Below are positions 6,943 through 56,221 of a stretch of 64,000 nt of DNA, one piece after another. This DNA comes from Escherichia phage phi G17: sequence record NC_070870.1; one strand, written 5' to 3'. The translations under genes and the position numbers were made by a program. The notes below the pieces were generated by a model. It was not told the DNA's origin and ran no database searches. It was given only the letters and a program-made list of their open reading frames with translations. Position 1 is the stretch's first letter. Every line of letters begins with the position of its first letter.

Positions 6943-8145
6943 ATGTTAAACTATAACGCTCCAATTGACGGTCAGAAATCTAGTATTGATGGTGCTGGTT
7001 CCGACCAGATGAATACCTTTTACTGGCTGAAGAAAGCTATTATTCAGTCTCGTAAAGACCAGTACTTCATGCCACTGGCTAACACCATTAACATGCCGAA
7101 GAACTACGGTAAGACTGTTAAGGTGTACGAGTACGTTCCACTGCTTGATGATAAGAACATCAACGACCAGGGTATTGATGCTAATGGTGCTACCATTGTT
7201 AATGGTAACCTGTACGGTTCTTCTAAAGACGTTGGTAACATCACCTCTAAACTGCCTCTGCTGACAGAGAACGGTGGTCGTGTTAACCGTGTAGGCTTTA
7301 CCCGTCTGTCCCGTGAAGGTTCTATCCATAAGTTCGGTTTCTTCTACGAATTTACCCAAGAGTCCCTGGACTTTGATTCTGATGACCAACTGAAAGAACA
7401 CCTGTCTCGTGAACTGATGAACGGTGCTGTACAGTTGACTGAAGCTGTTCTCCAGAAAGACCTGTTGGCTGCTGCCGGTACTGTACTGTATGCAGGTGCT
7501 GCTACCTCTGATGCTACCATTACAGGTGAAGGTTCTACCCCGTCTGTAGTTTCTTATAAGAACCTGATGCGTCTTGACCAGATTCTTACTGAGAACCGTA
7601 CCCCGACTCAGACTACTATCATCACTGGTTCTAAACTGACTGATACCAAAGTACTTGGTGGTACTCGTGTAATGTACGTTGGTTCTGAACTGGTTCCAGA
7701 ACTGAAAGCGATGAAAGACCTGTTCGGTAATAAAGCATTCATCGAAATTCAGCACTATGCTGATGCTGGTACTCTGATGAATGGTGAAGTTGGTTGTATC
7801 GACAAGTTCCGTATTATCCAGGTTCCTGAGATGCTGCATTGGGCAGGTGCTGGTGCTCAAGCTACTACTAACCCGGGTTACCGTTCTTCTATGGTTGGTG
7901 GCCAAGAACACTATGACGTGTTCCCGATGCTGGTAGTTGGTGATGACTCCTTCTCTACCATTGGCTTCCAGACTGATGGTAAGTCTGTTAAGTTCACCAT
8001 CATGACTAAGATGCCGGGTAAAGAAACTGCTGACCGTAATGACCCGTATGGCGAGACTGGTTTCAGTTCTATCAAGTGGTACTACGGTATTCTGGTTAAA
8101 CGTCCAGAACGTCTGGCTCTGATTAAGACTGTTGCTCCTCTGTAA
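6943..8145 (+). CDS. major capsid protein (N4 gp56-like)
   Basis: 400 aa, position after portal/scaffold, strong codon regularity, followed by terminator; size matches N4 MCP as recalled. Confidence 0.7.
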
Positions 8146-42751: not shown

Positions 42752-45316
42752 TTAGTTACCTTTCAGTTTATTTAGACGATTACGGTAGAGGGACTTAAAC
42801 CCAGGAATATCCTCTGGGTGTTTCTTGAGATACCTGACTAAGCTAGTCAAGTCCAGGTTTTGCAGGATGTCATCCTGTTTCCAGCTATAACAAAATAAAT
42901 TTTTGTACTTGCTGAGTATTTCGTAATGTTTATGATTATGTGGGTTAGTCATTGTCATGTATGGCACTAAGTCTTCCTCTGACTTAATGTACCCCATTTC
43001 AATGAGCTTCCTCTCTTTACTCCGATGATTTCTTAGGAAATCATACGCCCATTCATACTCTGGATTAAAAATCAGATTTTGTAGTGGTTTGAATGTTAGA
43101 CCAAGAATATCGAGGATTTCCCAATACTCTCTGTCATCCAATCCTGTGTGCTCAGTAATACCAATACGCTGTTCAGTGACATACTTCTTGAATCCCTTAC
43201 TGGTAATAACCGACATCAGTTCACTAAAGCGAACATCGTCAATGTGAATAGCACCACGTCGTTTAGCCTTGTTAACTTCGATTTGATTGCGACAGACAAC
43301 AGTCTCTGCTTTCATCTCATCGGACAACTCATACCATTTCCACATGGTTCCAATTTGGGCATTATCTGGTCTACCAGAACCAACCTGATTGGCTAGTACG
43401 TAGTACTTAGGCATCTCCACTTCAACGAATCGAGGTTCTGCATGGTATCTTGGGTCAGCAAATTCACTCTGAATGTAAGGTTTAGTTTCCCAATCACCAT
43501 TACTATTTCGTACAGGAGTAGTACCAAGTACAGCATTCAATGAAACCAGGGCATTAGTTTTACCACCTGCTTTGGTTTTATTTTCAGCTATAGTTTTAGC
43601 CCGTTTAGCAGCAGCTATTTTAGCCTGTTCCTTACGGAAGTTAGTTGGCTTGTCCCACTCATTATATTGAGTAAGGTCAATTACCCGATAACCCATAGCA
43701 GTGAACTTAGCTACAGCTTTTTCTGCTTCGCCTTTCTTAGGACTAACCACATGAACAAAAGCTGTACGCTCCAAGTCACCTCGATTGTATTCAGGGAAGT
43801 ACGAGAAAGAATCTGCACAGTCAGATAAACGTCTGGTAACTACAACGTTTTTGGTAGTGAATATGCCAATACCTTTATGGCAGTCGTAATCCGTCTTAAA
43901 GTAGGTAACAAGATTGCTCTTCTCTAAGCTAACACAGTTACCTTGGTTCATGATGTAGCCAGACCACTTAACACCAGATGCTTTTAATTTAGCAAGCTGA
44001 GGTAAATGCAAATGACGATACACCAATTCCTGGAAAGGATAGTATGTACCCTCTTCACGCGTTTCCTTAAGAGCACTCATGGCTTTACCATACAGTTTCT
44101 TAAGACCTGCATATTCAGGACGAGCCAGTAATGTTTTATTGGATAGGTTACGCCAATGCTTAATATAATGCTTACGCTGCTTAGCCCACAAGCTAGAGGA
44201 CATATAGTGTTGAACAGTTCTGTCTGTAACAGCACGCAGGAAAGATGGATATTCCCAGTAACGAGTAGAAGATTCGGAGGCATATTCTTCAACCTGCTTA
44301 ATAGCTTCAGGAATCTTAGCCTTAATCTCTTTCTCCATACGGTCTACTAAATCTACACATAGAGTAGTAATACCATCGTCGGTTAACTTCTGGTTAGACA
44401 AAGTTTCTCGACTAGGAGCAATAGCTAAGGTATCTGGTGCAGCCTGAACTACTAAAGTGCCAGCACCAATGATATTCATGAAGTTGAGGATAAGACCTAC
44501 AGCCTCTTCACTAGCTGGGCTGGATACTACTGGGTACATTACATTACCGTAGCGAACAAAGATGTTACTGTTGCCCATATAGTTCTGATACCAGCTATCA
44601 GACAAATCATATGAACCAGGTTCGAATGACATACCTAATGTACCCAGAAGAGTGTAGTCACCCTGTGTAATACTATTACCTGTTTCAACCCGATTGAGTT
44701 TAGGAGTACTAAGTTCAGCCTTAATCTCACCGTTAAATACGATGGATTTAATGTACTGAATAAAGGTATCTAAATCTCGCTTACCTAACTGGAATTTAAC
44801 TTCCAGACCGGATTCCTTAGTTGGAATACCAGTAACAATAGGAATAATACCCGGTTTGCCGTCATTCTCAATTGCAGCCTTAGCTACGTTATATACCGAC
44901 ATCTTTCCTTGGTTCCATGAAGTAACCTGGAAGCTATCTGTATAAGCGAATGGGGACTTACATCCCAGACCAAATCCACCAGTAACACTACTGTTGGACT
45001 TCTTGGTAGATGCACCATAGACACCATAAATGGAACCAATGAGTTCATCTGGGATACCGTTACCAAAGTCACGGAAGGTAATAAAGTGGTCTGTATCAAT
45101 GGTAATACGGATAGGAATATCAGTCTTACCTGCTTCAATATGAGCATCCCAACTGTTACAGATAGTCTCACGGACTACTGCCAGGGTAGGATTGTTATAT
45201 AGGGAAGTACTTAATACGTGAAAGAATGCCGGGTCATCAGAGATGCCAAAGGCGATTGCTTCTTTACCACCCAGTGTCGCTGAAGTGGCTGATTGATTGG
45301 TATCTGCAACTAACAT
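42752..45316 (-). CDS. rIIA: rIIA-like protein with GHKL-type ATPase fold
   Basis: 854 aa; N-terminal ICNSWDAH (N box), DFGNGIP (G1), GGFGLG (G2) as in histidine-kinase-like ATPases found in rIIA. Confidence 0.55.
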   Translation of the reverse strand: MLVADTNQSATSATLGGKEAIAFGISDDPAFFHVLSTSLYNNPTLAVVRETICNSWDAHIEAGKTDIPIRITIDTDHFITFRDFGNGIPDELIGSIYGVYGASTKKSNSSVTGGFGLGCKSPFAYTDSFQVTSWNQGKMSVYNVAKAAIENDGKPGIIPIVTGIPTKESGLEVKFQLGKRDLDTFIQYIKSIVFNGEIKAELSTPKLNRVETGNSITQGDYTLLGTLGMSFEPGSYDLSDSWYQNYMGNSNIFVRYGNVMYPVVSSPASEEAVGLILNFMNIIGAGTLVVQAAPDTLAIAPSRETLSNQKLTDDGITTLCVDLVDRMEKEIKAKIPEAIKQVEEYASESSTRYWEYPSFLRAVTDRTVQHYMSSSLWAKQRKHYIKHWRNLSNKTLLARPEYAGLKKLYGKAMSALKETREEGTYYPFQELVYRHLHLPQLAKLKASGVKWSGYIMNQGNCVSLEKSNLVTYFKTDYDCHKGIGIFTTKNVVVTRRLSDCADSFSYFPEYNRGDLERTAFVHVVSPKKGEAEKAVAKFTAMGYRVIDLTQYNEWDKPTNFRKEQAKIAAAKRAKTIAENKTKAGGKTNALVSLNAVLGTTPVRNSNGDWETKPYIQSEFADPRYHAEPRFVEVEMPKYYVLANQVGSGRPDNAQIGTMWKWYELSDEMKAETVVCRNQIEVNKAKRRGAIHIDDVRFSELMSVITSKGFKKYVTEQRIGITEHTGLDDREYWEILDILGLTFKPLQNLIFNPEYEWAYDFLRNHRSKERKLIEMGYIKSEEDLVPYMTMTNPHNHKHYEILSKYKNLFCYSWKQDDILQNLDLTSLVRYLKKHPEDIPGFKSLYRNRLNKLKGN

Positions 45317-46283: not shown

Positions 46284-46523
46284 TTACTTACGATTCCGTC
46301 CTACGAAGAATTGTAATAGACGTTCCTCAGCATCATCCTGTTCCTTGGTGGCTACATAGTCGCGTGCATAGTAATACACACACCATAAGCCAAGAACACA
46401 TGCAGAGAAACGGGCTACTACGAAGAACATCTCTTCCAGGCTCTGTGCACCATGTAGTGCAAATACAAATTCCAGAACCAGGATGATACTTATAATCATT
46501 GCTTGGATAGCTAAACGTTTCAT
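46284..46523 (-). CDS. small membrane protein (two predicted TM helices)
   Basis: 79 aa; IQAMIISIILVLEFVFAL and SACVLGLWCVYYYA hydrophobic segments. Confidence 0.4.
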   Translation of the reverse strand: MKRLAIQAMIISIILVLEFVFALHGAQSLEEMFFVVARFSACVLGLWCVYYYARDYVATKEQDDAEERLLQFFVGRNRK

Positions 46524-47464
46524 TCTGTAATTGTTTCTCCGGGTATTAGTTTCCTAAATTGGATGAAATCCAGTAAGTTGCCTGAATACAGCTTACCTTC
46601 ACGATCCATTGAAGTAACACCCTGTTCCCAGGTTAATGGGTTCTGGTTGTTAATGAACTTATCACCGAACAGCATAGGAGTTGCCTGGTGTTCAGTAGGG
46701 GATGCATGAATAGGTTGGTCTTCAACTAACTTAGCAAACAATCCTAAGTCCTCTTCAATAGTAGAAGGACGGCCTTCGAAATTGTTGTAAGAAGCACGAG
46801 CACAGCGAGCAGCACTTACTTTAAGAAGTAAGCCATACACTTCTGTAGCACTTGGTTCATCACGAGTAATTCGTTGATGTTTGCAATGAGAGTAAGCAGC
46901 ACTACGGTCAGGAAAGCCGATGTAAGGCAGATGCCACTCACCTTGGGACAGCTTAGATGGAACACTTTCATTATGAGCCTTACGCATTGCTTGAGCCAAT
47001 TCACGAATCTCTGGCTGTGCATCCTTATGGTCACGCAAGCCATAGAAGTTAGCCCAGCTAGTTGAGGTTACCACTACACGGATATGTGTGAATGGCTCCA
47101 GAATACGGTTAACAATCTGCTTATGTACTTGCCCACGACGTAGTTGTTCAGCATATACAGCAGCAGCAGATGCAGCGTTATCCCAGATAAACTTAGCATC
47201 CTCAATCTCCATAGGAGTGAGTTCTTCATCTGCTTGCATACCTTTCTGGTTCTTGCCCCAGTGACTTGGCATCACTGGTTCATTACGAACCTGTTCAATG
47301 AATTTAGAAGTAGGAATAGCACGACTGCTTGAAGCATTACGGTTGAATACACGGTGGGTCATAAACTCACTGTGGATGAATCGGGGATAGACCAATTCAA
47401 AGGTAGTAATACGAGTACCCGTTGCATGATGAACGGAATCTGCAATGACAGTTGCCTTAATCAT
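46520..47464 (-). CDS. thyX: flavin-dependent thymidylate synthase (ThyX)
   Basis: EFMTHRVFNRNASSSR matches the ThyX signature (R/T-H-R-x7-S-x-R). Confidence 0.7.
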   Translation of the reverse strand: MIKATVIADSVHHATGTRITTFELVYPRFIHSEFMTHRVFNRNASSSRAIPTSKFIEQVRNEPVMPSHWGKNQKGMQADEELTPMEIEDAKFIWDNAASAAAVYAEQLRRGQVHKQIVNRILEPFTHIRVVVTSTSWANFYGLRDHKDAQPEIRELAQAMRKAHNESVPSKLSQGEWHLPYIGFPDRSAAYSHCKHQRITRDEPSATEVYGLLLKVSAARCARASYNNFEGRPSTIEEDLGLFAKLVEDQPIHASPTEHQATPMLFGDKFINNQNPLTWEQGVTSMDREGKLYSGNLLDFIQFRKLIPGETITE

Positions 47465-47926: not shown

Positions 47927-47955
47927 AATAAAAAAGCCCACGGGTTAGGTGGGCT
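47927..47955 (-). terminator. rho-independent terminator (minus orientation)
   Basis: AGCCCAC / GTGGGCT stem; plus-strand A-run gives T-run after hairpin on minus strand. Confidence 0.55.
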
Positions 47956-48035
47956 TGGGTTAGGAGATGGATAAGCAATGAGCTGGAAGTAACTTCCACA
48001 AATAGCCCTACTAGAGGGCTATTCAGGTAAGTTAC

Positions 48036-48251: not shown

Positions 48252-48758
48252 TTATTTACTGCTTCTCGCAGCTACTGGTTTGTTTTCCTGGTTATTGTAC
48301 TTGCCTGTGTATGTGGCAGGTTCTTGAACCAGATGAAATAGTACTTGAGCTATCCCGGAACCAGCCGGGATATGTAATTTCTTACGCCCGTGATAGACCA
48401 GTTCAAGGGTAAGATACCCTTTCCATCCTGGTTCTATTACGGTATTGAACACTGATAGTGCACGTCTTGCCCATGTAGACTTATCGTGAACGATAGCTAC
48501 ACAGGACGGGGACATGTTGAACTTCTCAATTGCTGAAGCCAATGCGAATTTACCAAGATGGTGTGATATTTGTTTTCCATCAACGACTTTCACCATTGGA
48601 ATCAACCCAAATAAGCGATAGAAGGTAATGTCCTGCTTTATGCGTATGTCGTAACCAGCTTCACCCAATCCATAGCTTACACCATGCTCGGATACCTTAT
48701 GGTCTGGGACATCCAGCAACTGAGATGAACGATATAGAGAATTACCATTAACAACCAT
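48252..48758 (-). CDS. dcd: dCTP deaminase / dUTPase-fold enzyme
   Basis: 168 aa; GYDIR and IEPGWKGYLTLELVY segments resemble the dCTP deaminase family. Confidence 0.6.
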   Translation of the reverse strand: MVVNGNSLYRSSQLLDVPDHKVSEHGVSYGLGEAGYDIRIKQDITFYRLFGLIPMVKVVDGKQISHHLGKFALASAIEKFNMSPSCVAIVHDKSTWARRALSVFNTVIEPGWKGYLTLELVYHGRKKLHIPAGSGIAQVLFHLVQEPATYTGKYNNQENKPVAARSSK

Positions 48759-49933
48759 TATTTCATTCCTTTAGGGATATGAACTACCTCCCCAAAAGGT
48801 ACGGTAGCACTAGGGTTATTCAGAACACACCAGATGATTGGAATATCAAACGGGAGTTCTTCCATTGGGCGAACGTACATATCAGAGAATATGATTGCAG
48901 CGGTTGGCTTATTCTTAATAATCCATTCGCGTACTGGTTCAAGGTTTGTACCACCACGACCAGTAATCTTAATCTCTTCAAAAGTATCTTCTTCAGTGAT
49001 GTCTATTTCTTCTTGGATAATATCGTCGAAGGTAATAAGGGACATCTTCTTAGGATTGAACTGGCTCTTAACGTAGGCAACCTCTGAGTTAAAACGCAGA
49101 GAGTCAGCACTACTGATAGAACCAGATACATCCTCAAAGTATGCTAAATGTCGTAAACGTCCTTCATCATCTTCCAGGGATGGTAGATAGATGTCAGTGA
49201 AACGACGGTTAGGTCTGGCCCACGTATAGCGTGAGTCATCAATGTCAGTGAAGAAGTCCATAAGGACTTCCTGCCAAGGAACCACTGGTTTAAGGAATTG
49301 GGTAATAACCTCTTCCATATGACCAGCACCTTTACCTGGCATCACTCCACCAGCCATCTTCTGGCTTTGCATTGCACGTACTACGTTGTTGACAACAGCA
49401 CCCTGGGACTGCCCCGAAGAGGGAGCTTTCATGTCGCCAGCAAGACCTGCTCCGGCACCCCCTGACGGCTGCTGCCTTTTCTGTGGGTTCTTCATCAGGT
49501 CATCGTAGATGTCTTCTTCGACCCATCCTTTATATTGAGGGTCTTTGCAAATACCTTCGTCGATACCAGTGAACTTGTAACCATCTTCCTCTAACTGAAG
49601 GTTAATGAAGTGGTCACATGCCTGGTTCCAGACTTCTGGGTCACGGCTTCCACAACGGATGCCATGCAGATATGCCACATGCCAGAGTTCGTGCATTAGC
49701 ACTGTTTCTCTTGCATCAGGACACATCCAGATAAAGAAGTCTGGGTTGAATCGTAGTTCTATCCCATCGGTACATGCAGTAGGACAATCCTCACGATTCC
49801 ATGAGAACTTAAGACTACACAGCAATGAACCAAAGAAAGCAGCACTCCTGCCCAAAAATGCCTGTGCTTGAATACGGTCATACTCACGCATGAGTTGTTC
49901 ATCACTAAGTGTGTGCTGAGGTATCTGGTTCAT
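48758..49933 (-). CDS. VWA-domain protein with N-terminal HExxH metallopeptidase-like domain (MoxR partner)
   Basis: 391 aa; HELWHVAYLH zinc-binding-like motif; C-terminal region consistent with VWA; directly downstream of MoxR-like ATPase. Confidence 0.55.
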   Translation of the reverse strand: MNQIPQHTLSDEQLMREYDRIQAQAFLGRSAAFFGSLLCSLKFSWNREDCPTACTDGIELRFNPDFFIWMCPDARETVLMHELWHVAYLHGIRCGSRDPEVWNQACDHFINLQLEEDGYKFTGIDEGICKDPQYKGWVEEDIYDDLMKNPQKRQQPSGGAGAGLAGDMKAPSSGQSQGAVVNNVVRAMQSQKMAGGVMPGKGAGHMEEVITQFLKPVVPWQEVLMDFFTDIDDSRYTWARPNRRFTDIYLPSLEDDEGRLRHLAYFEDVSGSISSADSLRFNSEVAYVKSQFNPKKMSLITFDDIIQEEIDITEEDTFEEIKITGRGGTNLEPVREWIIKNKPTAAIIFSDMYVRPMEELPFDIPIIWCVLNNPSATVPFGEVVHIPKGMK

Positions 49934-49940
49934 GATGTAA

Positions 49941-50993
49941 TTATCCGTGAATGTAGCGGGAGATATTGGCAGCAGCCTTACGCCATTCAGGGGTAGCCTG
50001 AATTTCTGGTAATGCTTTGCCTACTGTACGGAAGTACAGAATCTTATGGGTGAACGTTTTAAAGCGTTCAATGTACTGAAGAACATCAGCGAAGTTATCT
50101 TCAGTGGTCTTGTTAGCCAGATGGTTAACGGTAGCCCAACACAGGTTATTATCTTCCGGCAGTGCACAGCCCATGGGGTCTTTGACTACCTTCTCAATCG
50201 TAATCATACGATTGTATACCTGAGTGAACTGTACAAACTCCACAGCTTTACCCGGTGTAACAAATCCACTGTAGTAAAGGGAATCTTCATCAGGCAGTGC
50301 CCCTTCGGGGCAGTTATGTAAGTCCTTGTTAATGAAGTCCCATGTTCTCGGACACGCGAATGTTTTGTTCTTATGTGCTGGGTCGAAGTCATGCAGGTAG
50401 CCTGGGTTAGCATGTAAGAATGCAACCAGACGTTCATCCCACTCATATGGAATCATTACGTCTTCAACAAAGATGTCGAAGTTAAGTTCCATTTCGAAGT
50501 GTACAACACGAGACTGCATTGCAGTACCCAGTGGGTTAACGATGGCACGGTCAGTAGCTTTGTTACCGGCACAGACAATCATCACATTGGGGTGAAGTTT
50601 CTTCTGACCGGTCATACGGTCAAGAATCAGCTTGTATGCAGCAGCTACTACTTCTTTCTTAGCTGAGTTGAACTCATCCAGGAACAGGAGCCAGCCATTA
50701 TAACCTTCAGGGATTTCATCCCCTTCAATAGGGAACAGGTCAGCGAATGGAATAAATTCTGCACGGTCACCATTACGGAATGGTAGACCGGACAAGTCTT
50801 CAGGAGCAGAAGTAGACAGACGATGGTCAATCAGCTTCATGCCAAATTCCTCTGCAACAGAACGAATGATCGCAGACTTACCCATGCCTGGTGATGAAGT
50901 CAGAAACGGAACGTTACCTGCTTGCAAGGCACGGATGATAAAGTTACGGGCTTGACGTGTATTACATACGGTCAAGGAGTCAATGCTCGCCAT
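49941..50993 (-). CDS. MoxR-like AAA+ ATPase
   Basis: Walker A SSPGMGKS, Walker B LLFLDEFN, about 350 aa. Confidence 0.7.
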   Translation of the reverse strand: MASIDSLTVCNTRQARNFIIRALQAGNVPFLTSSPGMGKSAIIRSVAEEFGMKLIDHRLSTSAPEDLSGLPFRNGDRAEFIPFADLFPIEGDEIPEGYNGWLLFLDEFNSAKKEVVAAAYKLILDRMTGQKKLHPNVMIVCAGNKATDRAIVNPLGTAMQSRVVHFEMELNFDIFVEDVMIPYEWDERLVAFLHANPGYLHDFDPAHKNKTFACPRTWDFINKDLHNCPEGALPDEDSLYYSGFVTPGKAVEFVQFTQVYNRMITIEKVVKDPMGCALPEDNNLCWATVNHLANKTTEDNFADVLQYIERFKTFTHKILYFRTVGKALPEIQATPEWRKAAANISRYIHG

Positions 50994-51027
50994 TTACTTA
51001 CTCTCCTAAAGTTAATGGAATTGCTAA

Positions 51028-51357
51028 TTAAGATTTAACGCAAGGGTATGCTTTGTGGATTGCCACATTAATCATGTCAGCAGGATGGTTCAGTTTTTGG
51101 ATAGTTGCATCCAACAGAATCTCATCTGCTACTTTGTGAAGTACATGCTTAAGCTGGATACCTTCTGGTACGCAGTTATCGGTAATATCCACAGCCATGG
51201 ATACCATACCCATGTAATAACCTTGGCTCGTATAATCAGGTGTATCGTACTTGTAGGCTTTGGCAGCAGCTTCCAGCAAGGTTGCACGACTAGATGCTTG
51301 AGCACCGAATGAAAGAGCTGATAGAACCACTACAGCAACAGCAATTAAAGTTTTCAT
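51028..51357 (-). CDS. secreted/periplasmic small protein (signal peptide)
   Basis: N-terminal MKTLIAVAVVVLSALSFGAQA signal-peptide-like sequence; 109 aa with two Cys. Confidence 0.45.
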   Translation of the reverse strand: MKTLIAVAVVVLSALSFGAQASSRATLLEAAAKAYKYDTPDYTSQGYYMGMVSMAVDITDNCVPEGIQLKHVLHKVADEILLDATIQKLNHPADMINVAIHKAYPCVKS

Positions 51358-51753: not shown

Positions 51754-51782
51754 AAAAAAAGACCTCCTATTTCTAGGAGGTC
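51754..51782 (-). terminator. rho-independent terminator (minus orientation)
   Basis: GACCTCCTA-TTTC-TAGGAGGTC perfect 9-bp stem; A7 on plus strand. Confidence 0.65.
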
Positions 51783-51831: not shown

Positions 51832-52428
51832 TTACAGAGCAGAGTAGGCTAATTGTAGCGTAGTAGATACACCATCTTTGGTAATAGTCAGTTCTGCATC
51901 ATAAACCCCAGGGCTTGGCTCAGTGCCCCACTTATAACTGATTACCCCGTAACCTAAGGTTGGTTCCAGTTTAATATCATAGGAAGCTGCTGCTTCCCCT
52001 TCCACAGCAAGGGTGATGGTTCCAGTTGAACCAGTAGGCTTAGGTACTACACGGAGGTAGCGTACACCTTCATATACATCCAAAGTCTCCCCGTCTTGGT
52101 ACAGGCGGGAAATTTCCTCTGTTTCCGGGTCATAGCGATAAACATCAAACCCAACTGGTACAGGGTCTGAGCCGGGAACTACTTCATAGATATCCCAGTC
52201 GTTAAGGTTGGTCAGGTTGTCCGGGAAGAATGCAGTCTGAGCTACATTTCCACCGTTACGGAAGTAAGCAATCTTACGGATACCGTGCCAGATAACATAA
52301 CTATCCGGGTAGGTAGCATCAGGGTGTTCAAATGAACCGATAGCTACAAAACCATCCTCCATAGAGGGAGAGGTTGAGTAGTTAATTTTCTTGGTAGATT
52401 GTTGAGCAGATACATATACAGTTGGCAT
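51832..52428 (-). CDS. beta-rich protein, possible capsid decoration protein
   Basis: 198 aa, Gly/Thr/Val-rich; N4 is recalled to encode its decoration protein (gp17) just after RNAP II genes; tentative. Confidence 0.3.
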   Translation of the reverse strand: MPTVYVSAQQSTKKINYSTSPSMEDGFVAIGSFEHPDATYPDSYVIWHGIRKIAYFRNGGNVAQTAFFPDNLTNLNDWDIYEVVPGSDPVPVGFDVYRYDPETEEISRLYQDGETLDVYEGVRYLRVVPKPTGSTGTITLAVEGEAAASYDIKLEPTLGYGVISYKWGTEPSPGVYDAELTITKDGVSTTLQLAYSAL

Positions 52429-52429
52429 C

Positions 52430-53671
52430 TTAGATTTCCTCTTTGTATGACATGCCTAAGTTGGCAGCGAAGCCCATATTATTGAACTGAAGGTTAATGT
52501 TACCACCAACTGGTTGCATATCCACAACGTCGGGTGATGCCAGCATTACTGTAGTTAGGGAGAGGCTATCAGCCAGTATCTGTACATTTGACAGAGTACA
52601 ATTCTCATTTGATGAGATTCTGATTGAGTGGTAATACGCACCACTCGCAGAAGATTCAATCATTACTTCTTGGTCTGTTATTGGTCCCATCAGGATATGT
52701 GTACGAGATGCCCCATTAGGACTCATAAACTTAATAACCATAGAACCTGCTTGAGAAAGGGTAGTTGTGAACCGGATGGCATTGTACTTACTAGAATCAG
52801 TTGCTCCACCCGGATAGGTTAATTCCAGGTATTCATTAGCATCATCATTACCACCGGTATACGTAGCAGTACCTGCTGAGTAAGTCCAGGTAGCTTTAGA
52901 AGCAGAAGCTGTAGGAGTAGCTGGAGTACCTCCCATAATGCGTTTATAAGCTAGCAGGTCTACTGGAGTACCACTGGTTCCAACGTAGTCCTTAAAGCCT
53001 CTGTAACCTATCAGGAAGCGTAAATACTTCTGCTCAGGTAATTGCTCAAACTTCAGGGAAAACACACTGGAGTTCTCTGTATTGGATACAAACTCTGCAT
53101 CCACAACAGGATGTTCTTTATCAATGATACGACCAATCAGTGGTGTAATTGGTTCATCTGCTTCCACTATAAGGTCTGCCTCTTCCAGAGTGAGGTTGGA
53201 ACCAATGAAGATAGCTGCCCAGCATACCCAGTCATTAGCCTGAGTATAGTAAGCCAACTGGAGAGGCTCACCTCCATGCGTTGCACGTAATCCTTGTAAA
53301 CCTTGGCTCATTTCTTTACGACCTGTAACCATAAGGATGCAGTTCGGATAGGCCATAGTGTAAGGCACAGTGTATGAGGTCAGTCTGCTCTCGCTGGTAT
53401 TGAAATCCATTGGACCTGGTTCCAGTGGCTCAGGGCCAGATTGAATCATACGGATAGGATAGTTCATTGCATCATCTTGCCCATCTCTGTACAGGAGGTC
53501 TTGAACGTGATGGAACATGACATGGTTAAGCGGATTGCCTAAAATATCTTGTCCTTCTTCATGATGGTATTCCCCAATAGGTACATACCCATCAAGACCG
53601 GCATTCACCTCATAGGGAACTACGGCTATAGCTTTAGGCTTATCTGATTTAAACACTTTACGGTTTGGCAT
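52430..53671 (-). CDS. hypothetical beta-rich protein
   Basis: 413 aa ORF abutting the next gene. Confidence 0.4.
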   Translation of the reverse strand: MPNRKVFKSDKPKAIAVVPYEVNAGLDGYVPIGEYHHEEGQDILGNPLNHVMFHHVQDLLYRDGQDDAMNYPIRMIQSGPEPLEPGPMDFNTSESRLTSYTVPYTMAYPNCILMVTGRKEMSQGLQGLRATHGGEPLQLAYYTQANDWVCWAAIFIGSNLTLEEADLIVEADEPITPLIGRIIDKEHPVVDAEFVSNTENSSVFSLKFEQLPEQKYLRFLIGYRGFKDYVGTSGTPVDLLAYKRIMGGTPATPTASASKATWTYSAGTATYTGGNDDANEYLELTYPGGATDSSKYNAIRFTTTLSQAGSMVIKFMSPNGASRTHILMGPITDQEVMIESSASGAYYHSIRISSNENCTLSNVQILADSLSLTTVMLASPDVVDMQPVGGNINLQFNNMGFAANLGMSYKEEI

Positions 53672-54129: not shown

Positions 54130-55347
54130 TTAGCTAAGGGCATAATCGGTCTCCAGAATGTCTTGCCAGAGGCTGTCATCCAGCTTACCAGCAGAGAACT
54201 CTTGTCCCAGTACCTGAGACAGAATGAAGCCTAGCAAGTCACTCTTAGCAATGTCAGACAGAATCTGATTGTACTGACGACGCAAGTCATTGCCATAGTT
54301 AGGATGGCAACGGAAGCAGTCATGTACGGTCATTACAGGGAATGATTTCTTAGGCATGGTATTGAGCATAGCCATGATTACATCCGTATCAACCAATGCA
54401 ATTGTTTCTGAATCCAGGTAGTCAAAGATACGAGTAGACAGGAAGCCTGACTTCTCATAGCTAGCCCACAGTGTGTTAACCATTTCATAGTTATCATCAG
54501 AACCAACCATGTAATCACTAGTTCCTTCACAGAGTGACTTAACATAGCTCACCTGGTTCATGTCGAAGTTACAACGACGCAGCATCTCACGTACCACCAT
54601 CCCATCAATAGAGTGGGTGATGTTAGCAGAGAGCATACGAGTCTTCTCTTCAGTACCCTGAACCATACGAGTGATGTCGAATGGTTTACCTAAGAAGTTA
54701 ACAGTCTGTACTTCAGGAACCATGACCTTAATGACAGCATGATAGTTGTCAGGCAGTACCCATACGTATCGGTTAGCATCCGGGTTACCACATTGCAGTA
54801 AGAACTTGTTCAATGCCCAAGGCCCACTAGCAACAGTTTCCATTACATTCTCAAAAGTCTTGAGACGGATACCTTCTCCGAATACTTCTTTAGGCTTAGC
54901 TTCTGAGCCATAGAACGCAGTCATAACTGCCTGCTTAGTGTCACTACGTTTGATGCGAGATGCTTCGCCAAGGATATCCAGCATCTTGTGGTAGATAACT
55001 GTATAAGCATCACGGCGTAATGGCTTACCATTTTCTCCCATGTAGTTAACTACGTTACACAGTTCGGCAGCAGAACGATCACCAGTCAGACAGGCTAATA
55101 ACTGTAAGCCAGATGATGTAGCATCCAGAGCTACGGTATAGCCAATAGGCTTACCTGCTTTCATATCTTTCCATGCGTTTACACCTGCATAGAACAGTGC
55201 AGATTCTTCAGCCTCATCTACCAGATTAAGCAGATTAGCTTCATTCTCATCGAACCAGCTAATACGTTCATCCCATGTCTTCTTATCTAAGCCATAGTTG
55301 TTAGCAATATCTACTTTCAGGTATTCACGGGCAGTTAACAGTTGCAT
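54130..55347 (-). CDS. T7-like single-subunit RNA polymerase, catalytic subunit (N4 RNAP II gp16-like)
   Basis: ALDATSSGLQ (motif A, cf. T7 FDGSCSGIQH), RSDTKQAVMTAFYGS (motif B), MTVHDCF (motif C); 405 aa. Confidence 0.8.
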   Translation of the reverse strand: MQLLTAREYLKVDIANNYGLDKKTWDERISWFDENEANLLNLVDEAEESALFYAGVNAWKDMKAGKPIGYTVALDATSSGLQLLACLTGDRSAAELCNVVNYMGENGKPLRRDAYTVIYHKMLDILGEASRIKRSDTKQAVMTAFYGSEAKPKEVFGEGIRLKTFENVMETVASGPWALNKFLLQCGNPDANRYVWVLPDNYHAVIKVMVPEVQTVNFLGKPFDITRMVQGTEEKTRMLSANITHSIDGMVVREMLRRCNFDMNQVSYVKSLCEGTSDYMVGSDDNYEMVNTLWASYEKSGFLSTRIFDYLDSETIALVDTDVIMAMLNTMPKKSFPVMTVHDCFRCHPNYGNDLRRQYNQILSDIAKSDLLGFILSQVLGQEFSAGKLDDSLWQDILETDYALS

Positions 55348-55402: not shown

Positions 55403-56221
55403 TTAGTCTTCGTTTACTAATTCTTTATCAGCGAACTCCAGTACAGCTTTGTTGTAACTGGTTCCTTGATAGTTGATGTGATAGCCCTGAGCGTAAGTAC
55501 GCCCACGTTTATCGAATTTGTGACCTAGTGAGAAGTTATTACCCTCTTGGGTCACTAACTCCATTACTTCCTTAGCAGTACGGCTGTACTTCTCAAAGGC
55601 TTTGACACGTTTCTCATAGTCCTGACGGGTTTCACCCTCTTTAGGTTTATCCATGTTAGGACGGGAGTCTTTTACATAGTTAGCAACGTCCCAGTTAATA
55701 CAGAGACGTTGGTTGTTCATACGGTTGATGTGGTCAAGACAGACATCCATCTCATGATGGTTCTTCTTGAGGATGATTGAGCCTTTGGACTCATAGTAAC
55801 CAGTATCCCGGTTAGTCAGGACAGGCTTAGGTTTACTTACGATAGGCAATGGATACTGGAATGCCTCCAGTTCCATCTGAACATCTTCACTAATCTCATA
55901 GATAACACCGAACTTGTCGATGGTAGGGTCATAGTTGAAGCAGTCATTCTCTGCCATCTTATACAGACAGTCAGCGATATACTGAGCATCATCTGAGTGA
56001 CTCATGAGAGAGCCAATCATAGTCTGAATGTCAGCACGTTTATGTAGGGCAATCTGCACCATTGCATCAATGAGCAGCTTATAATCAATTTCCAGGTAGG
56101 CAGCGAATGCCTTAAAGTCAATTTCTTTGGATTCCTCGAACTCTTTCCTCATGCGAGGCAAAAGTTGATTCTTATTAAATAGTTTTTCGAGGGTTTTCTG
56201 GTGCTCAATGGATGCGTACAT
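55403..56221 (-). CDS. RNA polymerase II small subunit (N4 gp15-like, N-terminal T7-RNAP-like part)
   Basis: 272 aa ORF immediately upstream of the catalytic subunit; size matches N4 gp15 as recalled. Confidence 0.5.
   Translation of the reverse strand: MYASIEHQKTLEKLFNKNQLLPRMRKEFEESKEIDFKAFAAYLEIDYKLLIDAMVQIALHKRADIQTMIGSLMSHSDDAQYIADCLYKMAENDCFNYDPTIDKFGVIYEISEDVQMELEAFQYPLPIVSKPKPVLTNRDTGYYESKGSIILKKNHHEMDVCLDHINRMNNQRLCINWDVANYVKDSRPNMDKPKEGETRQDYEKRVKAFEKYSRTAKEVMELVTQEGNNFSLGHKFDKRGRTYAQGYHINYQGTSYNKAVLEFADKELVNED

Follow-up and report, generated by a model that had tools for sequence, protein, structure and literature searches.

A MoxR-like AAA+ ATPase and its zincin-VWA partner, the gp24/gp25 core gene pair of N4-like phages, as a possible two-component remodelling and proteolytic machine

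Our analysis showed that two adjacent genes of Escherichia phage phi G17 (sequence record NC_070870.1; the whole stretch analyzed, 64,000 nucleotides, is referred to here as the window) are, by sequence comparison, almost certainly orthologues of gp24 and gp25 of coliphage N4. gp24 is a divergent AAA+ ATPase of the MoxR/dynein/midasin clade, while gp25 combines a VWA domain whose metal-ion-dependent adhesion site (MIDAS) is complete with, ahead of it, a minimal metallopeptidase-like domain of the zincin type (HExxH and an Asp further downstream); these domain assignments are nearly certain. We give a probability of roughly 0.5 to the reading that the two proteins act together as an ATP-driven remodeller and zinc protease.

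The source phage of the window is a Gamaleyavirus (a G7C-like, N4-like coliphage), with ~92% DNA identity to known phages. The two open reading frames lie on the minus strand exactly where the original prediction had placed them, at 49941-50993 (350 aa) and 48758-49933 (391 aa), and match PHROG 1297 and 1314 with E values of 4e-131 and 2e-143. The annotated gp24, gp25, and gp26 of phage G7C map onto the matching part of the window. Amino acid identity of the window proteins is 95-97% to Gamaleyavirus proteins, compared with ~61% to those of Enquatrovirus. Gene order is alike in the three phages, with gp17 upstream of the pair and the dCTP deaminase gene gp26 downstream in each. G7C has an HNH homing-endonuclease gene, gp24.1, between gp24 and gp25 that the window does not have, and there is otherwise no substantial difference. 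Both genes are counted in the 14-gene core of N4-like phages and are of the middle class in N4 (PMC4193335), and on the core list of Chan et al. they are two of the five genes without an assigned role (gp24, gp25, gp53, gp55, and gp69). The pair is therefore already catalogued, not new, and the window member is an ordinary one that adds no new variant; the original prediction did not identify it as these long-catalogued core genes. Its statement that no role in infection has been established for such pairs agrees with the papers we found, all of which give N4 gp24 and gp25 as “unknown” and none of which has experimental or functional data on them or their homologues. A 2026 paper on the N4 ejection proteins mentions neither proteolysis nor chaperones.

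The features of gp24 are as follows.

49941..50993, minus strand: gp24 orthologue, a 350-aa MoxR-like AAA+ ATPase, AAA+ core at about residues 26-180
50874..50897, minus strand: Walker A SSPGMGKS, residues 33-40; G38, K39, and S40 invariant in 118 homologues
50781..50828, minus strand: conserved DHRLSTSAPEDLSGLP segment after strand 2
50667..50690, minus strand: Walker B LLFLDEFN, residues 102-109; D106 and E107 invariant in 118 homologues
50562..50573, minus strand: CAGN with sensor-1 N144, at the end of strand E137-144; G143 and N144 invariant
50508..50522, minus strand: AMQSR with candidate arginine finger R162; S161 and R162 invariant

Both Walker motifs had been read correctly in the original prediction, and the GMGKS, DE, N144, and R162 signature of an AAA+ ATPase is invariant in 118 sequences. 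R162 may be the arginine finger, by analogy with the “LDRF” motif of MoxR proteins. The AlphaFold2 model (pLDDT 90.6) has AAA+ topology, and residues 181-350 make up an extra helical C-terminal region. The DHRLSTSAPEDLSGLP segment, in which D56, R58, D66, G69, and P71 are invariant among the 118 homologues, leads into a predicted beta-hairpin at residues 70-81 (strands E70-74 and E77-81 in the DSSP assignment of the model) that lies between strands 2 and 3, the position of a helix-2 insert, and a PDB sequence search aligned this segment to a midasin AAA domain. The closest structural neighbours of gp24 are dynein, CbbQ, midasin, and NorQ, all from the clade that contains MoxR and is marked by the beta-hairpin insert in helix 2. 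Midasin was also the top PDB sequence match, and gp25 supplies the adjoining VWA partner typical of the MoxR family.

In Pfam, gp24 matched AAA (PF00004) with 27.3 bits against a cut-off of 21.2, but AAA_5, with 16.3 bits, fell short of its cut-off of 22, and AAA_3 did not match. Bacterial members of the gp24 family score above the AAA_5 threshold (29.3, 34.1, and 22.3 bits), and one is at the AAA_3 cut-off (27.1). Because gp24 fails both profiles while its bacterial relatives pass AAA_5, its MoxR membership is indirect: the earlier assignment to this family stands on structure and on the midasin match, but not on the family thresholds. With PF00004 above its cut-off and strong matches for both domains of gp25 (below), the HMM search, which the original prediction had named as its test, nevertheless supports the predicted AAA+/VWA pair.

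For gp25, the corresponding features are listed here.

48758..49933, minus strand: gp25 orthologue, 391 aa, zincin-like domain, linker, and VWA domain (Pfam DUF2201_N and DUF2201)
49484..49906, minus strand: zincin-like N-terminal domain, residues ~10-150 (DSSP of the model, pLDDT ~90; Pfam DUF2201_N)
49679..49693, minus strand: HELWH, putative zinc-binding/catalytic motif, residues 81-85 (H81, E82, H85)
49613..49627, minus strand: NQACD with D107; N103, A105, and D107 invariant in phage and bacterial homologues
49151..49483, minus strand: linker, residues 151-261, a Gly/Ala/Gln-rich part plus helices, pLDDT 47-69
49202-49216, minus strand: conserved WxRPNRR at the linker end; W238 and R244 invariant, R240-R243 nearly so
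48770..49150, minus strand: C-terminal VWA domain, residues ~262-388
49118..49132, minus strand: MIDAS motif DVSGS, residues 268-272 (D268, S270, S272), invariant
48947..48961, minus strand: GRGGT with MIDAS threonine T329; G328 and T329 invariant
48878..48892, minus strand: IFSDM with MIDAS aspartate D351, invariant

The HELWH motif and VWA-like C-terminus that had been predicted for this protein were borne out by Pfam matches to DUF2201_N (188 bits, E 3e-55) and to the “VWA-like” DUF2201 (117 bits, E 8e-34), and its homologue is named “VWA-like domain-containing protein” in the G7C annotation. In the AlphaFold2 model (pLDDT 80.4), the N-terminal domain has two helices and a three-stranded sheet, followed by the HExxH helix and then by a helix with D107. 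HELWH is invariant in 121 phage homologues and also in a combined set (15 phage, 22 bacterial). The invariant H81, E82, H85, and D107 lie on helices 72-87 and 99-116, past the three-stranded sheet, consistent with the ligand arrangement of zincins, and D107 on the second of these helices is a candidate third zinc ligand. A search of the N-terminal domain alone against Pfam at E <= 10 returned no family besides DUF2201_N, and PDB sequence searches with gp25, either as a single sequence or as a 30-sequence profile, gave no significant match. With a broad phage and bacterial profile, the VWA matches were significant, and the N-terminal domain matched M48/HtpX (E 0.08) and the minigluzincin MJ1213 (E 0.25) weakly. 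Catalysis by gp25 is putative, as its zincin domain did not match any characterized peptidase significantly.

The C-terminal domain has the Rossmann-like VWA fold, and DVSGS aligned with the MIDAS motif of integrin alpha-X. All five MIDAS residues (D268, S270, S272, T329, and D351) are invariant, both in the 121 phage homologues and in the combined set. The top Foldseek match of this domain was the VWA domain of CLCA1, and the VWA domains of NorD and BchD also matched it structurally.

The surroundings of the pair include the following.

49934..49940, minus strand: 7-nt spacer from the gp24 stop to the gp25 start; HNH insertion site in some relatives
48252..48758, minus strand: dCTP deaminase (gp26; Pfam DCD 61 bits, PHROG 1663)
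51761..51782, minus strand: terminator-like hairpin upstream of the small ORFs preceding gp24
47934..47956, minus strand: terminator-like hairpin after the gp27 homologue

The gp24 stop codon TAA is followed by the spacer ttacatc and then by the gp25 ATG, so that the two frames do not overlap, and we saw no strong Shine-Dalgarno sequence at this junction. Translational coupling of gp25 to gp24, as first proposed, is plausible, but an HNH homing-endonuclease gene of ~480 nt stands between the two genes in G7C, Mimir124, Moonfish, and PD38, and tight coupling is therefore not obligatory. The gp25 stop codon overlaps the start of the dCTP deaminase gene (TAATG), and these two genes are therefore probably co-transcribed and co-translated. 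Further downstream are ThyX (46520-47464) and rIIA (42752-45316); with dCTP deaminase, they justify the earlier description of the pair as sitting among nucleotide-metabolism genes. G7C has annotated stem-loops at positions equivalent to both hairpins. The upstream hairpin is the probable start boundary of a transcription unit containing gp24, gp25, dCTP deaminase, and gp27, and the downstream one its probable end.

The pair is found in ~700-800 phage records, comprising all Schitoviridae, Rak2/CBB-type jumbo phages, rV5-like phages, and cyanophage S-TIM5. Outside phages, it is present on 94 plasmids and at >570 bacterial loci, where a DUF3150-like gene is usually the third member. Of 81 loci with a gp25 relative, drawn from bacteria, plasmids, and phages, 71 have a gp24-family gene upstream of it in the same orientation, and the two genes have also stayed together in S-TIM5, CBB, an rV5-like phage, an Acinetobacter N4-like genome, and a Burkholderia plasmid. 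The DUF3150-like gene (~290 aa) is added in 53 of 80 bacterial, plasmid, and integrative-element loci; a profile search did not find it in the window, and PDB and PHROG searches with its own product were uninformative. The modules of bacteria, plasmids, and integrative elements (MoxR-like ATPase/DUF3150/DUF2201) encode full-length homologues with 25-33% identity to the window proteins and share the gene order, strand, and invariant catalytic and MIDAS residues; they differ in the added gene and in their conjugative or other mobile-element settings. Their neighbours on plasmids and integrative elements include RadC, ParB, an RES toxin, RNase H, Gp157, a Rad52-like recombinase, and a RecD-like helicase, with recurrent PRTRC (ThiF/Ubl) cassettes, and plasmid modules often adjoin type IV secretion genes (VirB11, VirB3, VirB4, TraM, and TraN). 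Neither gp24 nor gp25 matched an NCBIfam model, and the scores for bpMoxR were weak (16.6 and 15.4, < 27) and limited to bacterial relatives. The third component of the MoxR-vWA ternary conflict systems (VMAP, iSTAND, or FtsH) is absent from the window. We rejected a reading of the pair as a defence system, as neither protein matched a PADLOC defence-system model and the element is a lytic phage.

This architecture, with both protein families, has already been reported as the MoxR/metallopeptidase-vWA pair of group 2.2 jumbo phages, for which Iyer et al. (2021) proposed virion assembly and proteolytic processing (PMC7824862). HExxH and DxSGS are retained in CBB gp216 and gp217, which matched the gp24 and gp25 profiles with E values of 2e-38 and 1e-40. 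At 447 and 450 aa, the jumbo-phage proteins exceed those of the window in length and are only 23-26% identical to them, and their genes lie among virion-protein genes, whereas the window pair lies among nucleotide-metabolism genes. A division into chaperone and co-chaperone has been described for the MoxR-vWA pairs of midasin, RavA-ViaA, CoxD-CoxE, and ATV tail assembly (PMC7159879). NorQ-NorD, CbbQ-CbbO, RavA-ViaA, CoxD-CoxE, and ATV p618/p892 likewise place an AAA+ protein of the structural clade of gp24 beside a MIDAS-VWA partner, but the VWA partner in these classical pairs has no zincin domain, and gp24 differs in its additional helical C-terminal region of ~170 residues and in falling short of the AAA_3 and AAA_5 thresholds. 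Midasin (Rea1/Mdn1) differs further in being a single giant eukaryotic polypeptide with six AAA modules and no peptidase. FtsH, an AAA+ motor with an HExxH protease, and CLCA, an HExxH protease with a VWA domain, are analogies only, as their polypeptides are organized differently and PDB sequence and profile searches detected no homology of their peptidase domains to that of gp25.

In the remodeller-protease reading, we infer that gp24 and gp25 form a complex and that gp25 is proteolytically active. The VWA/MIDAS domain would dock gp25 on the gp24 ring and/or grip an acidic residue of a client, ATP hydrolysis by gp24 would pull or unfold this client, and the zincin domain would cut it; both genes are expressed in the middle phase, probably from the transcription unit that also holds dCTP deaminase. 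Other MoxR-vWA pairs lead us to favour, tentatively, a client from a large phage protein complex that is being matured or assembled. The neighbourhoods of several relatives argue for this: an Hsp20 gene lies directly upstream of the pair in S-TIM5, an “Hsp70”-annotated gene and virion-protein genes flank it in CBB, the virion decoration gene gp17 is upstream in G7C, and in roseophages a second structural module adjoins the gp24/25 homologues (PMC4193335). Against it, the window genes are in the middle replication/nucleotide-metabolism block, not the late structural block, and bacterial versions usually need the DUF3150-like gene that the window phage does not have. Since plasmids and conjugative elements, which produce no virions, commonly carry the module, its ancestral role also cannot have involved a virion-specific client.

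Alternatively, the zincin machine may act on host DNA-bound proteins or defence factors, and not on proteins of the phage, and thereby help incoming mobile DNA to replicate, a role in establishment or counter-defence that we regard as doubtful but worth weighing. The middle-block position beside dCTP deaminase, ThyX, and rIIA/B, the many relatives carried by conjugative plasmids and integrative elements near RadC, ParB, RES toxin, and PRTRC genes, and the universality of the pair in Schitoviridae regardless of virion details all suit it. However, no PADLOC model matched, the architecture is absent from known anti-defence proteins, the closest neighbours in S-TIM5 and CBB are chaperones and virion proteins, and the type IV secretion neighbours on plasmids suit machine assembly equally. 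In a broader and rather speculative form, the pair would be the phage version of an ATP-driven, MIDAS-guided zinc protease common to virulent phages, conjugative plasmids, and integrative elements, which clears or processes proteins during the establishment of incoming mobile DNA. Candidate targets would be host DNA-bound factors, host defence factors, and, because PRTRC neighbours recur, ubiquitin-like-tagged proteins. If so, the pair would be essential to every Schitovirus for establishment and not as a virion-assembly chaperone.

It is unlikely that the zincin domain cleaves only gp25 itself, releasing or activating a VWA domain that would then work with gp24 as a non-proteolytic chaperone. 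CLCA proteins have a self-cleaving HExxH domain upstream of a VWA domain, and both the CLCA1 match and the long, poorly ordered gp25 linker, with its conserved GDM and RPNRR motifs between the domains, would fit such processing, but the CLCA likeness is architectural only, and similarity in zincin sequence was not detected. We consider it very improbable that the pair inserts a metal cofactor into a phage metalloenzyme, as NorQ-NorD, CoxD-CoxE, or the Mg-chelatase BchI-BchD would suggest. Although CbbQ and NorQ are among the top structural matches of gp24, NorD and BchD among those of gp25, and nucleotide-metabolism enzymes are adjacent, those systems have no zincin, which leaves its strict conservation in gp25 unexplained, and the plasmid and integrative-element settings show no candidate enzyme; we know of no requirement for inserted metal clusters in ThyX or dCTP deaminase. 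Least probable of all is an accessory role in DNA replication, such as loading or unloading a ring-shaped DNA factor: gp24 has a weak PHROG match to “clamp loader” (E 2e-5), a beta-clamp-like gene (DNA_pol3_beta_2, E 4e-9) translationally overlaps the ATPase gene on a Burkholderia plasmid, and a second lies near the module in Pseudovibrio, but such genes occur in only 2 of ~80 loci and not in the window, RFC scores below the MoxR/dynein group for gp24, and a VWA-zincin partner is unprecedented in clamp loading.

The module recurs across jumbo phages, rV5-like phages, one cyanophage, and plasmids and genomic islands in the hundreds. Identifying its client would close a persistent gap in N4 biology and give a function to two Pfam DUF families. 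The window itself serves as a reminder of a known unknown, and the comparison provides evidence that the module extends beyond elements that build virions. Two points of nomenclature deserve mention. The “gp25” of CRISPRi-ART is a gene of another phage, and the “HNH endonuclease” label that PHROG and RefSeq give to gp25 homologues is a mis-annotation, which probably arose because HNH genes are inserted beside gp25 in some phages.

The gp24 and gp25 genes of the window are the long-known N4 pair in an ordinary Gamaleyavirus, and their architecture has been published previously. The region 48252-51000 shares 90-92% DNA identity with about 55 Escherichia, Shigella, and Klebsiella phages of this genus (G7C-like; Schitoviridae, Enquatrovirinae), and the gp24 and gp25 proteins of the window are 95-97% identical to database entries. 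The best 120 matches in protein searches with gp24 and gp25 were all N4-like relatives, and most came from 70-77 kb contigs. The RefSeq entry for phage G7C names the counterparts "ATPase" (gp24) and "VWA-like domain-containing protein" (gp25), remarks that each resembles its N4 namesake, and places gp26, a dCTP deaminase, after the pair. In Zhao et al. (2009), N4 gp24 appears as "putative ATPase, AAA superfamily" and gp25 as "vWFA super-family", neither with a known function (PMC2784036); Chan et al. (2014) placed the pair in a 14-gene core of N4-like phages and among the N4 middle transcripts (PMC4193335). Our literature searches found no experiment on any member of the two families. The features of the locus are as follows.

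49941-50993, minus strand: gp24 ORF (350 aa), adjoining the gp25 ORF
48758-49933, minus strand: gp25 ORF (391 aa)
48252-48758: dCTP deaminase, downstream of gp25
Between the dCTP deaminase and ThyX, downstream of gp25: a small ORF and a 147-aa ORF
46520-47464: ThyX, downstream of gp24/gp25
42752-45316: rIIA, downstream of gp24/gp25
Upstream of gp24, before the RNA polymerase II subunit genes: three small ORFs
54130-55347 and 55403-56221: both subunit genes of an N4-type RNA polymerase II, upstream of gp24
51782-51761 and 47956-47934, minus strand: terminator-like hairpins flanking a probable transcription unit

The small ORFs, gp24, gp25, the dCTP deaminase, and a gp27 homologue lie between these hairpins and probably form one transcription unit; stem-loops are annotated in G7C at positions equivalent to both. 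A spacer of 7 nt (ttacatc) separates the TAA stop of gp24 from the gp25 ATG; the stop codon of gp25 and the start codon of the gene after it overlap (TAATG). Translational coupling of gp24 and gp25, as proposed in the original prediction, is plausible from this spacing but not established: in G7C and several relatives an extra HNH homing-endonuclease gene (gp24.1) is inserted exactly in the spacer, and the tight spacing is therefore not needed for function. Such genes inserted beside gp25 are also the probable source of the label "HNH endonuclease" on gp25 homologues (PHROG 1314 and many RefSeq and GenBank records), which is wrong, the proteins being DUF2201_N/DUF2201. A separate case is the gp24 homologue of Klebsiella phage Pylas (H125, MH899585.1, 12844-14677), whose match is split into two parts separated by about 1.8 kb, with an HNH endonuclease annotated in between, suggesting an intron or intein with a homing endonuclease, or a split gene. 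Immediately upstream of the window gp24 is a homologue of G7C gp17.3, a 109-aa ORF (51028-51357, minus strand) whose N-terminus is hydrophobic and signal-peptide-like; it scores 21.9 bits against Rap1a type VI immunity proteins, below the cut-off of 27.7, and may encode a periplasmic protein. Further upstream, ORFs of 198 and 413 aa (51832-53671, minus strand) occupy the position of G7C gp17, a Hoc-like head-decoration protein. The first resembles the Hoc-like family in its first ~80 residues only (PHROG 2973, E 3e-8) and the second matches no PHROG family, and the two may represent a replaced or novel decoration or surface protein.

The observation of an ATPase paired with a zincin-VWA protein was correct and its interpretation essentially right, though the MoxR assignment needs qualification at the profile level. 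In Pfam searches gp24 passes the generic AAA model (27.3 bits, cut-off 21.2) but falls short of the dynein/MoxR-related AAA_5 (16.3 bits, cut-off 22). The sole significant match in the PDB sequence search was a midasin AAA module (E 8e-5, or 1e-4 with a 30-sequence profile). Walker A GKS, Walker B DE, sensor-1 N144, R162 of "AMQSR", and the segment "DHRLSTSxPEDLxGLP" after strand 2 are invariant in 118 homologues. The AlphaFold2 model (pLDDT 90.6) has an AAA+ core in which a beta-hairpin formed by residues 70-81 separates strand 2 from strand 3, as well as a further helical region at the C-terminus, and its structural match to the MoxR-type clade exceeds that to other AAA+ clades by a small margin. 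Bacterial members of the family pass the AAA_5 threshold, and one reaches that of AAA_3. Because of the midasin match, the invariant motifs, the model, and these bacterial relatives, we accept gp24 as "MoxR-like" even though the window protein itself fails the profile test.

For gp25, the HMM check bore out the predicted metallopeptidase-like and VWA domains, with DUF2201_N ("putative metallopeptidase") at 188 bits and DUF2201 ("VWA-like") at 117 bits. The HELWH motif (H81, E82, H85), D107 in the next helix ("NxACD"), and the full metal-ion-dependent adhesion site (MIDAS; D268, S270, S272, T329, D351) are invariant in 121 phage homologues, and remain so when 22 bacterial homologues of 27-33% identity are added. 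The model (pLDDT 80.4) is confident for the C-domain and for the N-domain, which consists of a pair of helices, a three-stranded sheet, the HExxH helix, and one more helix after it. The linker between the domains (residues ~150-260) is poorly ordered and has a conserved WxRPNRR motif at its end. The top Foldseek matches were the VWA domain of CLCA1 and the MIDAS domain of MDN1. PDB sequence searches found no solved relative of the N-domain, and a broader profile gave only marginal matches to M48/HtpX peptidases (E 0.08) and the minigluzincin MJ1213 (E 0.25). The layout of HExxH and downstream acidic ligand fits these families without proving membership.

Genetic linkage between the two families holds across a very broad evolutionary span. 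The phage collection has 688 records with a gp25-like sequence and 809 with a gp24-like one, the carriers including Schitoviridae of many hosts, Rak2/CBB/PBECO4-type jumbo phages, rV5-like Vequintavirinae, cyanophage S-TIM5, and Thermus phage phiFa. Profile searches confirmed both families in representatives of the phage groups, with HExxH and DxSGS kept. Scanning one genome per bacterial species gave at least 574 loci encoding a full-length relative of gp25 (Acidobacteriota, Desulfobacterota, Burkholderiaceae, Bacteroidota, Cloacimonadota, Planctomycetota, Chloroflexota), and the module is also present on 94 plasmids. Of 81 loci, 71 have a gp24-family gene upstream in the same orientation; several of the other ten have too short an upstream sequence, while at least two (L005 and L059) have the full flank and yet no such gene. 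At 53 of 80 loci there is an extra gene of ~290 aa with a weak DUF3150 match, which is absent from the window.

The bacterial and plasmid contexts are mobile elements. On a Burkholderia MOBH/MPF_T conjugative plasmid PRTRC ThiF is followed, further on, by the ATPase, beta-clamp-like, DUF3150-like, and VWA-like genes and VirB11/VirB3/VirB4; a Chitinophaga conjugative transposon carries TraM, TraN, RadC, the ATPase/VWA pair, DUF3150, and ParB; and acidobacterial islands have PRTRC ThiF and PRTRC_E upstream of the module and RNase H and Gp157 downstream. PRTRC cassette genes (a ThiF-family E1-like protein and PRTRC protein E) recurrently adjoin the module in two distant phyla, at 822-2310 of locus L013 and 1-659 of L082, a Burkholderia gladioli plasmid. 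Midasin MIDAS domains bind ubiquitin-like domains, so a functional link between the module and PRTRC ubiquitin-like systems is conceivable. The same plasmid (NZ_CP022209.1) has a 267-aa beta-clamp-like gene (7061-7864; DNA_pol3_beta_2, E 4e-9) inside the module, overlapping the stop of the ATPase gene, and a second clamp-like gene lies near the Pseudovibrio module (L018, 9877-11016). Among phages, the pair in S-TIM5 comes right after an Hsp20 gene and is followed by genes for a virion protein and thymidylate synthase; in CBB, one side of the pair has virion-protein genes (one neighbour carries an Hsp70 annotation) and the other has DprA/thymidylate synthase. Three unrelated phage groups, N4-like phages (46520-47464 in the window), CBB-type jumbo phages (L085), and S-TIM5 (L086), have a thymidylate synthase gene (ThyX or ThyA) downstream of the pair, within ~1.3-2.5 kb. 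This could reflect shared block ancestry or a functional link.

From this wide linkage, the strict conservation of the ATPase, HExxH, and MIDAS sites, the AAA+ (MoxR-type clade) and VWA folds, and the position of both genes in a middle-phase block, we infer that gp24 and gp25 form a two-component machine. The MIDAS-bearing VWA domain would join gp25 to the gp24 ring and/or grip an acidic residue of the client, as in midasin-Rsa4 or NorQ-NorD; ATP hydrolysis by gp24 would remodel the client, and the zincin domain would cleave it. FtsH has a similar division of labour, here spread over two polypeptides. MoxR-vWA pairs are generally chaperones and co-chaperones (reviewed in PMC7159879). Iyer et al. 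(2021) described group 2.2 jumbo phages with a MoxR ATPase and a vWA protein having an N-terminal metallopeptidase, suggested that the pair takes part in virion assembly, with proteolytic processing, and cited the archaeal virus ATV, in which a MoxR-vWA pair is needed for tail development (PMC7824862). Because of such precedents, the chaperone and virion genes close to the pair in S-TIM5, CBB, and roseophages (a second structural module lies beside gp24/gp25 in the latter; Chan et al., 2014, PMC4193335), and the type IV secretion neighbours on plasmids, we lean towards a client process in which a large phage protein complex is matured or assembled. Elements that make no virions also carry the module, which speaks against a function confined strictly to virions. 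The main rival is a role in establishment or counter-defence, acting on host proteins, to which the replication and nucleotide-metabolism neighbourhood and the RadC, ParB, PRTRC, and recombinase neighbours in mobile elements point. Metal-cofactor insertion, self-processing of gp25 only, and a clamp-related role are less likely. The residual interest of the locus is the question of gp24/gp25 function, and the three-gene version on plasmids and integrative elements, recurrent beside PRTRC cassettes and conjugation genes, suggests an approach to it.

Two bacterial records carry N4-like genes. The circular 75,126-bp Acinetobacter baumannii "plasmid" pRBH2-3 (L083, NZ_CP110465.1) looks like an N4-like genome, with a phage-type RNA polymerase, AAA ATPase, HNH gene, and VWA-like protein, and is probably a phage carried by or co-sequenced with the isolate and not a plasmid. 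A 727-kb contig of a Mesorhizobium yinganensis isolate genome (L003, NZ_JBEBMH010000002.1, 434974-448110) contains gp24, gp25, dCTP deaminase, ThyX, and one more homologue in N4 order at 35-60% amino acid identity, and a related ATPase is on a 153-kb Mesorhizobium MAG contig (P0151). The block is either an integrated N4-like element or an assembly chimera; the N4-like family is regarded as strictly lytic, and an integrated member would be unusual.
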